Part shown: positions 2,802 to 7,516 of the stretch, in pieces | Layout: each line of letters opens with the position of its first letter | Numbering within the stretch: the stretch's first letter is position 1 | Assembly (NCBI GenBank): GCA_964012805.1 | Contig: CAXGUD010000007.1 | Location: forward strand, 32,001-96,000 | Direction of reading: 5' to 3' | DNA: 64,000 nt | DNA from: an uncultured Bacteriovoracaceae bacterium | Lineage (GTDB): Bacteria > Bdellovibrionota > Bacteriovoracia > Bacteriovoracales > Bacteriovoracaceae | Made by a program: the position numbers and the translations under genes | The notes under the pieces: generated by a model | What the model saw: only the letters and a program-made list of their open reading frames with translations | Database searches by the model: none | Told to the model about the DNA's origin: nothing

Positions 2802-4745
2802 TCAGAGCATCAGTTGATCAAAAAAGTCTAGATCTCTGCTTTTCAAAATATTATTCCATATTATGACGTCAGACCAAGGTGTGAGGGTAACTTTTATAGG
2901 AGTTCCCTTTTCGTTTGATAGGGACTTTTTAAAACTTTGAAGGTTTCTCAAGAACTCTTCAAGGTTTTTAGGATTAAAATTTTTATTTTTAATCCCAATT
3001 GTTGAAAAGTTCACCTTAATTTTTTTAAGCCAACGAGCCCTTCGTTTTTTCTTTCTTTTTGAAAACAATCTTTTAACTCTTCCTTCTTCTTTTACATCTT
3101 GTTTTCTAAAAAGCTCCATAGAAGATGTTAAACTAGGTAAGTCATTTTCGTCGTCTAGAAAGACTTTTTTCCGAAAGGCCCTAAAATGGCTTATTTTAAG
3201 GTCAAGATTATAGCCCTTTTTGAATTTGATGGATGAGATAAAATGCGTGCCACATTCCTTGAAAAATTGGGGGAGGTTTGTTTCTATTTTATCAATAAGG
3301 TTCTTTGAAAGATTAAATCTTGATAGAGCTCTTTGAGATGTTTCTGAAATAGTTAAGGAGCTGTTTAATTTAGCAAAGAAAACCCCCCTTTTAAGAGGTG
3401 AATAGCGGTTTTCAGCGTAATTATTATTATTCGTTTTAGGAATGTAAGGAAGCTCAATATTTTTAAGGCAATTTCTATATACTTTCCCCTTAGTATCAGT
3501 TCCAAAGCCCATTTGAATATTTTTTGGGTTAGGGCCTGTAAGATTGAGAGTTCTTTCTTGATAAATAAAAGGAGATAAGAGTGGGTTTTTAGACCTAATG
3601 TTTTTACAATTTCTTTCTTTGAAAAAAACCATGAGTTGATTTTTCAAAGCATGGCATTCTTTGATCATACTAGTATTGCCGAGGGGGTGTAAGAGGAGCT
3701 TTTTCTTACAATCAGAAAAGGTTTCCCAATTCAAGCTTTCCTCAAGGGCTTTTGCTTTAGCAAAGCATAATTTGTTTCCTTTCTTTTTAGCGATGGCTTT
3801 TTTTGATTTAAAAAGAAAAAGATCATTTTGAATTCTTTGAAGGAATTTTCGTGAGTCAAGCTGTAAAGATTTTGATTTTTTAGGAAGATCATTTTCATTA
3901 TAAATTTTTAGTAGTGTCGGTAGATCACTCCATTTCCTTTTTTGAAAATTTACTAAATAACCATCTTGGGTATTGAGAGACTTTTTGAGAATAGTTTTGA
4001 TGTAATAATCAAGACTTTTGCCCTTCCACTTATCTACTCCATAGAGGATGTCAACGTATTGATTAACACCCTTTTGGAGAACATCTAAGTGAAAAAAACT
4101 ATTGTATTCAAAGTCTTTAAAGAGGTTTAATTGAAATGAGTCTTTGGTATCGTAAGTGATCCTCTTTTTAATTGTTTTTTTCAAAACTTTTCGGTCTTTG
4201 ATTCTCGTTCCATAAAAAGATGCGAAAAGAAGAAGGCGGGATCGCTTTTTAACAGCTTCAATAAAATAGTCGCCGCACTCTTGAAAAAAGAGGTCATAAT
4301 TTTTTTCACTTAAGACTCTTTCAATATCTTTTTGAAATGAAAGCTTATCGAGAGACTTGAACTCAATGTTTTTATCAATATCTATGACAATTAGAAACGA
4401 AGAGACTTTTTCTTTTTTGAGGCGTTTTTCCTTTTTCTTGAGGAGCTCTAAATTTTTCTTTACAAAAAGTTCGATTTCATAATCTTCAAAATTATGATTT
4501 TGTTTATTGTCAAGATACTGAATTTCAGTATTGATTTCTTTTTTTACAGAATATTCTTTTGAATTTGCTAAACATGTTTTCAGTGATGGTTTTGTAAGGT
4601 TAAACTTTATTCCAGCTCCAAGTAACGGCATAGAGTCAATGCCGGTTATTTGTTTTGAGTAAGCACGATAGGAGAAAGTAACTTCAATGAGCAAAAATAT
4701 GATTTTGAAGTAAATAATTCGTGAAAGTGAAATCGGCCATTTCAT
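2802..4745 (-). CDS. Secreted protein with two tandem divergent MACPF-like domains
   Basis: N-terminal hydrophobic signal; two copies of (L/M)GxG...CL ... FFxECGx(Y/H)FI; second copy has FFKECGTHFISSI and PIKVTLTPWSDVI. ATG at 4745 overlaps the upstream stop (ATGA). Confidence 0.55.
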   Translation of the reverse strand: MKWPISLSRIIYFKIIFLLIEVTFSYRAYSKQITGIDSMPLLGAGIKFNLTKPSLKTCLANSKEYSVKKEINTEIQYLDNKQNHNFEDYEIELFVKKNLELLKKKEKRLKKEKVSSFLIVIDIDKNIEFKSLDKLSFQKDIERVLSEKNYDLFFQECGDYFIEAVKKRSRLLLFASFYGTRIKDRKVLKKTIKKRITYDTKDSFQLNLFKDFEYNSFFHLDVLQKGVNQYVDILYGVDKWKGKSLDYYIKTILKKSLNTQDGYLVNFQKRKWSDLPTLLKIYNENDLPKKSKSLQLDSRKFLQRIQNDLFLFKSKKAIAKKKGNKLCFAKAKALEESLNWETFSDCKKKLLLHPLGNTSMIKECHALKNQLMVFFKERNCKNIRSKNPLLSPFIYQERTLNLTGPNPKNIQMGFGTDTKGKVYRNCLKNIELPYIPKTNNNNYAENRYSPLKRGVFFAKLNSSLTISETSQRALSRFNLSKNLIDKIETNLPQFFKECGTHFISSIKFKKGYNLDLKISHFRAFRKKVFLDDENDLPSLTSSMELFRKQDVKEEGRVKRLFSKRKKKRRARWLKKIKVNFSTIGIKNKNFNPKNLEEFLRNLQSFKKSLSNEKGTPIKVTLTPWSDVIIWNNILKSRDLDFFDQLML

Positions 4746-6160: not shown

Positions 6161-7516
6161 TTAAGGAAGAACACGTGCCAGTTCTGGTAGGCAGTAGTGG
6201 TCAAAAATAGGTTTGATTGGAACCATTTGTGACCTCACTCTTTTACAGGTTTCGACTTCGCGATAATGGGTCGTATCAATTCCTTTTTTTTGAAGTTCTT
6301 TAACACAAGCCACAGCCTTTTTATCTCCAAAAAGAAAGTTTTGATTTTCTTCGTATATTTTTTCAATATTTTCATCATTGACGGTCTCTAAGAGAGTTGA
6401 AAGTTTGATTTCTTTTTTCTTATTTGATGGTTCAGCAAGGTCAAGAATAAAAGTTTTTTCTGGATCAAACTCATACTCATTATTCCCAAGAGGAAATTTT
6501 TCTTTGAGCGACCTTATACAATTCAGGCCTTTGTAATATGTGTTCATAAAAGCACTATCAATGCGATCTATTTCAGCGATGAGTTCTGAGTTCGCTTCAA
6601 GGTTTCTTTTTCTTTCAAATTGAATTTTATCCGATGTGGATTCAAGCCTAAGTTCGTTTTGAAATTCAGGGTTTTCCATCCAGGGAACTACTTCAACCGA
6701 AGAAATCATACCAACATCTGAATCCTGCATTGCCAATATAGAATTTTTCACTATTCTTTTAAAGGAGTCTATATCGGTTGGAAGAAGATCTGCTTGATGG
6801 TCTTTTCCAAGACCATATCCCCAGACGCTTATTTGTAACCTCTTTTTGAATGTTTCTTCTTGAAAGTCGGAGGAAGTATCATTGTTATTTGTCTTTGGTT
6901 TGAAAAGAGATCTTAAATGGGCCTTAAGTTTGCTATCAAAGCGTTCGTCTCTTTTTGTGCTTTCCGTTTTATACGTTAACATAGCAAAAAATTTGGAGTT
7001 CCTGCCAATGGAACGAATATAAAAAGGACCACATGAATTGAAAAAACTGACCACATCTTTTTTTCTTAGCAACTGGATAGCATCGCCGCTCAATCCTGTC
7101 TTCCCCTCATCAAGAGAGTGATAATAGGAGTCGAGGTCCAGCGAGACAAAGATGTGGTGGTGATAATAAGTCTTCTCGCCTTCTTTAATTGTTGTATTTG
7201 TAAAGTTATTAGAAATGAAAAGGTATTTAAGTGACCCACTTAATTCATTTCTATTTGAAAACTTTTCTTTCCATGTTTCGTCAATATCAATGAATTGGTA
7301 TTGAAAGTCATAACTAGGTCTGGTCAATTTAATTTTGGAGAAGCACGTGGACTGGAGGGTGTTCGTTGCCATCGAATAGCCTCTTCCGACCACAGGCGTC
7401 ATTCCTCTTTCTTTAAACCGGTTGTCTTTGATAACTCTTGGACCCGCCTGAAGGGATGAAATAAGAAAAATTGTTGCAGCGACTATACTAAATAGTTGAA
7501 ATCCTATTACCTTCAA
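6161..7516 (-). CDS. Secreted MACPF-like protein (paralog 1)
   Basis: TTG start with AAGGAG SD; signal peptide; VGRGYSMATNTLQSTCF, FFNSCGPFYIRSIGR, SVEVVPWMEN, HYCLPE. Confidence 0.55.
   Translation of the reverse strand: MKVIGFQLFSIVAATIFLISSLQAGPRVIKDNRFKERGMTPVVGRGYSMATNTLQSTCFSKIKLTRPSYDFQYQFIDIDETWKEKFSNRNELSGSLKYLFISNNFTNTTIKEGEKTYYHHHIFVSLDLDSYYHSLDEGKTGLSGDAIQLLRKKDVVSFFNSCGPFYIRSIGRNSKFFAMLTYKTESTKRDERFDSKLKAHLRSLFKPKTNNNDTSSDFQEETFKKRLQISVWGYGLGKDHQADLLPTDIDSFKRIVKNSILAMQDSDVGMISSVEVVPWMENPEFQNELRLESTSDKIQFERKRNLEANSELIAEIDRIDSAFMNTYYKGLNCIRSLKEKFPLGNNEYEFDPEKTFILDLAEPSNKKKEIKLSTLLETVNDENIEKIYEENQNFLFGDKKAVACVKELQKKGIDTTHYREVETCKRVRSQMVPIKPIFDHYCLPELARVLP

Follow-up and report, generated by a model that had tools for sequence, protein, structure and literature searches.

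A 64,000-nt stretch of DNA from an uncultured Bacteriovoracaceae bacterium (contig CAXGUD010000007.1; the whole stretch is called the window, and unprefixed coordinates are positions within it) carries an operon of three genes whose products, A, B and C, are predicted from their modelled fold to belong to the MACPF/CDC superfamily, and which lie outside the strict MACPF, CDC and CDCL families by the membership criteria of those families. A multi-subunit family of the MACPF/CDC fold, which lacks annotation, has A, B and C as its conserved core, and its clusters comprise up to nine genes. A further member, D, is an unlinked paralog in the same genome (G000). These proteins differ in the two regions that correspond to transmembrane hairpins (TMH1 and TMH2): to judge by sequence, usable amphipathic hairpins are present in D, doubtful in A, and absent from B and from the two tandem domains of C (C1 and C2). 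It is proposed, on an even balance of belief and doubt, that A, B and C are subunits of a secreted beta-barrel pore, similar to the membrane attack complex (MAC) of complement, that attacks the membranes of other cells, in which C and B would act as the platform, A as the bridge and D as the polymerising subunit.

Predicted fold and sequence family

Proteins of the MACPF/CDC superfamily have a core of four antiparallel strands with helical clusters after the first and the third, two amphipathic regions that form hairpins, and the capacity to oligomerise into giant beta-barrel pores. The AlphaFold model of A (predicted local distance difference test, pLDDT, 66) contains four strands (residues 68-78, 115-132, 165-184 and 228-234), with helical clusters between the first and second and between the third and fourth, followed by a helical bundle. 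All of the Foldseek matches listed for this model were MACPF, CDC or stonustoxin chains, three of them with E below 0.001 and stonustoxin at the top (E 1.8e-4). In the VIA structural comparison, pneumolysin came first (Z 10.6, root-mean-square deviation 9.8, 193 residues aligned); stonustoxin reached Z 8.6 (6.6, 145 residues) over residues 65-279 only, and the Gram-negative CDC toxin 6nal was third (Z 8.2), while the helical bundle of A matched many unrelated bundles at Z about 7. The language-model neighbours of the A/B/C family in Atlas are likewise MACPF/CDC proteins, some of them annotated MACPF_SNTX and Stonustoxin_helical. In the model of C (pLDDT 55, and under 50 in domain 2), domain 1 repeats the strand and helix pattern of A, and the Foldseek matches listed were chains of pore-forming folds; C2 is assigned by profile and by Atlas only, its Atlas neighbours being MACPF clusters at 0.94. 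A preliminary description of this DNA, made from the sequence alone, had called the proteins perforin-like and suggested a check by AlphaFold and Foldseek. The superfamily fold agrees with that description, with the core strands and two helical clusters recovered in the models of A and C1, but the best structural matches are nearer to the CDCs and stonustoxin than to perforin.

The same description had recognized one domain that occurs four times in the three genes; two of the copies lie in C. A and B share 38% identity from end to end (E 4e-94), and comparison of C1 and C2 with the core profile of the A/B family gave hhalign probabilities of 97.9 (E 5e-13) and 96.2 (E 3e-9), respectively, which supports the four copies; the probability between C1 and C2 themselves was 92.5. 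As single sequences, A and C2 were not significantly similar (z 1.3), and homology between the helical linker of C and the helical bundle of A was not shown (hhalign probability 1.4). All of the motifs quoted for the domain are present, and the pattern F[FY]xxCGx[YFH][YF][IV] has five matches in the genome (5,136 open reading frames, 1.48 million residues), namely the four window domains and D.

The MACPF signature is given as Y/W-G-T/S-H-F/Y-X6-GG (PMC2954219; statements taken from cited papers refer here to the available part of each text). By alignment, the window family keeps only half of this signature: G occupies the second GG position in 0 of 111 aligned single-domain members, C1 and C2 also lack the GG, and most members have a GR two residues ahead of it. 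The missing GG, from which the family had been called divergent, is therefore a real feature of the family, and because its loss is common to all members it does not mark inactive copies. Elsewhere in the family alignment G163 and Y166 are nearly invariant, whereas G235 (after strand 4), C58 and C162 are invariant, and a disulfide may be formed between the two cysteines.

No match to Pfam PF01823 was obtained for A, B, C or 29 family members, or in a search of the whole genome in which the control was positive in 1 of 14. A, B and C did not match PF01289 (the genome-wide search for this model had no positive control), NCBIfam gave no match to the A/B/C family, and the family profile found seven PDB sequences, all unrelated (best E 0.04). 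No published description of the A/B/C/D family was found in the literature searched, the coverage of which excluded subscription papers and supplements.

Hairpin regions and the paralog D

The family falls into two classes, one with hairpin regions of 51 and 55 residues and alternating apolar faces, and the other with altered lengths and charge-filled regions. D (G000:C18:33064-34407, equivalent to L001:8065-9408) belongs to the first class, with the faces VAAYY, LAVAS, YALAL and GIVAY, and sequence heuristics identify it as the sole copy in G000 with fully amphipathic membrane hairpins. It is 45% identical to A and adjoins no family gene; its neighbours are a mechanosensitive-channel gene and a thioredoxin gene, a context that is the same in the related genome G001 and similar in a second relative, G002. 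In B, both hairpin regions are altered in length, 42% of their residues are charged, and neither contains a charge-free hairpin. Those of C1 are short and 45% charged, and in C2 TMH1 is nearly gone and TMH2 is polybasic. A retains the canonical 51/55 lengths, but its second hairpin is partly polar and ends in the face KNNTS. When the register is fixed, the second TMH2 strand has a mean hydropathy of -2.4 in the A clade (4 sequences), as against 0.55 +/- 0.83 (minimum -1.3) in 18 others, and the second TMH1 strand is also lower in the A clade (0.14 vs. 2.1). These differences among paralogs, with altered hairpins in B and C and canonical ones in D, point to a division of labour between platform and polymeriser.

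A similar pattern is seen in other genomes. In 14 of 15, representing about 8 lineages, exactly one member passes a rule of 51/55 lengths and four apolar faces (thresholds fixed after the data had been seen), accompanied by 1-4 altered paralogs, and in G000, G001 and G002 the passing member is D. A register-free scan that included metagenome loci covered 19 loci; in 18 of these the weaker hairpin of the A-type gene scored higher than that of the partner gene, and in the other one the two were equal. The two hairpins of window A scored 1.1/-0.55, those of D 2.3/2.7, and those of the G002 orthologue of A 1.1/1.25, so that A may still insert.

All four proteins are under purifying selection. The ratio of nonsynonymous to synonymous substitution rates (dN/dS) relative to G001 and G002 is 0.02 for A, 0.03-0.04 for B and 0.12-0.13 for C, and 0.05 for D from G001 alone (the comparison with G002 being saturated); two neighbouring control genes gave 0.04-0.18. 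The altered hairpin regions of A, B and C are themselves conserved, at 74-93% identity.

It is conceivable that the operon is self-sufficient, in which case A would be the pore subunit, B and C would provide its seed, and D would form pores independently or as an alternative. The exact hairpin lengths and amphipathic TMH1 of A, its dN/dS of 0.02, the scores of its G002 orthologue and its position in the slot held by the insertion-competent gene in L029, L110, L128, L130, L133 and L135 all favour such an arrangement. The polar second strands of the A clade, however, are difficult to reconcile with it, as is the retention of D in all three genomes that have this type of A, and it is regarded as rather unlikely. 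Of the multi-component pore originally suggested, the multi-component part is thus supported, by the conserved order of A, B and C, whereas a pore formed by these three alone is less well supported, given the unusable hairpins of B and C, the partly polar one of A and the canonical ones of D.

Distribution and gene order

The records that match A most closely (95% and 91%) bear the labels Halobacteriovoraceae and Bacteriovoracales. Of the 237 genomes of the host's taxonomic family, 13 have strong matches, 2-4 in each; this patchy distribution (6/13 genomes of one genus) fits a conflict system. In a sample of 401 genomes from the phylum, strong matches are confined to the host's taxonomic family, and elsewhere only weak matches to remoter proteins were obtained. 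The same operon together with D is present in G001 and G002; a two-gene form is found in six genomes of one genus, and G028 has five paralogs. A metagenome scan yielded 48 loci, 35 of which were mapped, on 28 contigs. Nine family genes are present on each of two contigs and eight on a third, and the orthologous slots of these clusters share one order.

The arrangement A, B, tandem C is repeated on contigs of 32-72% GC, some of which are labelled Myxococcales or Deltaproteobacteria, and this conserved order suggests that the system has several components. In a FastTree analysis of core columns with the hairpins left out, the B clade (support 0.81) joins partners from contigs of 36-72% GC. A C-type gene directly follows B in 15 of 18 cases, from a list entered by hand that includes related records, and the remaining three B genes have 0, 44 and 707 bp of downstream DNA. 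A quick tree was consulted as well; owing to long branches, the position of the C domains is unsure. The sources of the clusters are labelled Myxococcales, Kofleriaceae, Deltaproteobacteria and Methylococcales, and also Leptospiraceae and Zetaproteobacteria bins, although bin labels can be wrong. Solitary members comprise the D-type loci and L106 and L132, which have no partner in the available DNA.

Two further sets of loci were encountered. L028 contains an A orthologue, 80% identical to window A, whose sequence is divided between two frames; it lies on a contig of 1.8 kb in a Sulfurimonas-labelled bin, and is probably misbinned or an assembly error. L024, L050-L055 and L069-L072 encode remoter secreted proteins that match the family core weakly, with no Pfam MACPF match in the five scanned; LRR and Kelch repeats, or repeats rich in Cys, are present in some of them, and the GG at the signature is retained in L024. 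These loci form a further unannotated branch in the phylum.

Charge, lipobox and accessory domains

C has a net charge of +61. A lipobox is present in C at nine distant loci outside the Bdellovibrionota-labelled records (six found by pattern and three by eye) and absent from C in the window, G001, G002, L029 and G028; the pattern scan also found none in A and B of the window. It did flag D and three other single-domain proteins, in which the Cys lies inside the signal peptide, and these were discounted by eye. One B protein bears a SPOR domain and one C protein MORN repeats. Genes of the collagen-like, LRR and Cache types are found in the large clusters.

A collagen-repeat gene immediately upstream of A and small Cache-domain genes were observed within large clusters (L110:3710-5311, L114:4384-5802, L113:10578-11057). 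In G028 (L022:10501-14083), genes of 285 and 898 aa without Pfam matches lie between C and three A-like paralogs, and an LRR gene is next after C in L113 and L116; the products of these G028 and LRR genes are possible recognition subunits.

An alternative with some support from these features is that the proteins assemble into a giant heteromeric channel or scaffold within the outer membrane of the producer itself, anchored by the lipoprotein C and serving export or uptake rather than attack. The lipobox of C in the nine loci, the B-type protein with a peptidoglycan-binding SPOR domain, the collagen-like, LRR and Cache genes nearby in large clusters, the strong purifying selection and the ordered orthologous slots among large clusters are all in line with it. 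On the other hand, the characterised MACPF/CDC proteins compared here attack target membranes and the CDCL toxins are lipoproteins too (PMC11169675), the C of the window has no lipobox, and 224 of the 237 genomes of the host's taxonomic family yielded no member of the A/B/C/D family. A role in the producer's own envelope is accordingly held to be distinctly unlikely; should it be correct, it would be a new role for the MACPF/CDC fold.

Proposed assembly

A feasible model of the attack pore would begin with Sec export and release of the subunits; the genome encodes secretins (four matches), which makes an outer-membrane export route possible. The basic C would then dock on an anionic target surface, its charge replacing the lipid anchor that C has in other lineages, and the two C domains and B would align edge to edge as a seed. 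A, as a partly inserting bridge, would template the unfurling of hairpins, after which many copies of D would join and insert. Prey membranes or protist grazers were named as possible targets in the preliminary description. In lineages with a canonical gene ahead of B, that gene would be the polymerising subunit, a role that in the genus of the window has apparently moved to D. A different function, in which B and C are self-protective or regulatory subunits that cover the edge at which A or D oligomerises while being exported, or in which the operon is now a non-lytic adhesin, would suit their non-inserting hairpins, the lack of an identified separate immunity gene near the operon and the dedicated inhibitor of the Bacteroides fragilis CDCL (PMC11169675), but is improbable because ordered clusters of five to nine paralogs that differ in shape, together with a tandem C anchored in the membrane, go beyond what an inhibitor would require.

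Several points weigh against the attack pore. D is unlinked to the operon, and the case for it as a partner depends on its occurring together with the operon in three related genomes. The strong conservation, the lipobox of C, the SPOR domain on one B and the Methylococcales- and Deltaproteobacteria-labelled hosts would also fit a role in the producer's own envelope, the predatory lifestyle of the host is presumed from its family membership alone, and no gene next to the operon was recognized as one for receptor binding or immunity. The structure models are of modest confidence, and C1 reached Z 7.6 in VIA, within the range of common arrangements. The hairpin rule was set post hoc on about 8 lineages; no member passes it in L037, and in G288 one member is excluded solely by an insertion of 2 residues. 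The G002 orthologue of A, finally, scores as if it could insert.

Genomic context

The three genes are co-directional and tightly spaced, as first described, with 30 bp between A and B and an ATGA overlap of B and C (Table 1). The reading frame of C opens upstream of its ATG, at TTG 4769. A, B and C are likely to be secreted, each having a hydrophobic N-terminus and no further hydrophobic segment downstream by hydropathy, and the mature N-terminus being conserved among homologues, which accords with the signal peptides noted earlier. DNA of the locus was found in marine metagenome contigs, and comparison of three DNA runs gave 0 indels and 0 joints. An assembly artefact is ruled out by the presence of the same operon in G001, G002 and the metagenome contigs, and decaying pseudogenes by intact frames and dN/dS of 0.02-0.13. 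Promoter and terminator scans were at chance level (18 vs. 16.8 and 4 vs. 3.1, respectively). The datasets listed as containing this DNA included no RNA sample. One 151-nt RNA-run contig maps inside gene A and was not used as evidence of expression. A stand-alone response regulator (2261-2674, minus strand) lies 128 bp downstream of C on the same strand, is retained in G001 and G002, and is covered by an RNA-run contig.

Table 1. Positions of the operon genes, domains and sequence features in the window
Feature	Position	Strand	Description
Gene A	6161..7516	-	451 aa, TTG start; signal peptide, MACPF/CDC-type domain, C-terminal helical bundle with four conserved Cys
A, TMH1 region	7175..7282	-	Residues 79-114, between predicted strands 1 and 2; moderately amphipathic
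A, MACPF-like signature	6995..7045	-	FFNSCGPFYIRSIGRNS; NS at the GG position, conserved GR two residues earlier
A, TMH2 region	6836..6964	-	Residues 185-227; lipid-facing side of second strand K-N-N-T-S, vs. G-I-V-A-Y in D
Gene B	4742..6130	-	462 aa; architecture as in A; member of the B clade
Gene C	2802..4745	-	647 aa counted from ATG; two tandem MACPF/CDC-type domains around a short Cys-containing helical bundle
C, domain 1	3921..4631	-	Residues about 39-275; short, charged hairpin regions
C, domain 2	2856..3524	-	Residues about 408-630; TMH1 almost deleted in alignment, TMH2 polybasic; low-confidence structure model

Elsewhere in the window, a bacterial microcompartment locus (14492-22770) encodes shell and vertex proteins, an aldehyde dehydrogenase, a Complex1_51K/RnfC-type protein, DeoC-type and class II aldolases and a triosephosphate isomerase, which suggests sugar-phosphate catabolism. 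A gene on the minus strand (25677-28979) encodes a protein of 1100 aa that has four matches to scytovirin lectin and a segment rich in proline, possibly a glycan-binding surface protein; it is preceded by a 693-aa gene without a Pfam match (28985-31066, minus strand).

Comparison with known systems

The known bacterial complement-like pores, the CDCLs, have two or three components, whereas clusters of the window family contain up to nine genes. The family has no Pfam or NCBIfam model and pairs an insertion-type subunit with non-inserting paralogs. If the proposed attack pore is correct, it would be a second bacterial route to MAC-like ordered assembly, a compact test system for the transition from a homo-oligomeric pore to a multi-step cascade, and a candidate membrane-attack weapon of some Bacteriovoracaceae and myxobacteria. 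It is tempting to speculate, if only as a tentative possibility, that bacteria across Bdellovibrionota, Myxococcota and other lineages independently evolved a MAC-style cascade for prey killing, an ordered perforin-fold pore of 3-9 subunits with a tandem-domain, membrane-anchored seed. A cascade of that size would surpass the five MACPF chains of animal complement.

CDCs are homo-oligomers with a cholesterol-binding domain 4. Pneumolysin and 6nal are the best structural matches of the A core (Z 10.6 and 8.2), but the C-terminal beta-sandwich domain 4 is absent from A, which has a helical bundle in its place. Stonustoxin consists of two subunits, its MACPF/CDC domain is followed by helical and thioredoxin-like domains, and its likeness to the A core is seen in both Foldseek (top match, E 1.8e-4) and Atlas (MACPF_SNTX, Stonustoxin_helical); by contrast, the window proteins have no thioredoxin-like Pfam match or further C-terminal domains. 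Apicomplexan perforin-like proteins are predicted to contain more than one MACPF domain per chain (PMC7522308), as does C, but they are eukaryotic, and in C both tandem domains lack usable hairpins.

In Bacteroidota, CDCL genes lie side by side in pairs or triplets and encode exported proteins of the CDC fold, one of which acts as the platform for the other (PMC11169675), and the large subunit CDCL-L recruits many copies of CDCL-S, three-component sets also being known (PMC11169675, PMC11952106). Further hallmarks of the CDCLs are a PF01289 match, an SpII lipoprotein signal and proteolytic activation. The window operon likewise encodes adjacent exported paralogs. Its proteins differ in having no PF01289 match, no lipobox and a Cys-rich helical bundle instead of a domain-4-like sandwich; moreover, it is the loss of hairpins, and not an additional binding domain, that marks the platform, one of the subunits has tandem domains, and the hosts belong to other phyla.

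In complement, the hairpins of C6 and C7 are short, basic and confined to the outer leaflet, whereas C8 and C9 reach across the bilayer (PMC6294249); an account that ascribes insertion to C8-alpha only is also given (PMC3021121). The MAC (PMC6294249) and the window system have in common several MACPF-fold paralogs that differ in hairpin length and charge, with basic, non-spanning subunits and one spanning subunit, roles that in the window system are predicted from sequence. The window system differs in being bacterial, in showing no sequence match to the MAC and no detected TSP, LDLRA or EGF modules, and in having a tandem two-domain subunit and up to nine paralogous genes, and its order of assembly is only inferred. 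The system of A, B, C and D is likely to work as the MAC and the CDCLs do.

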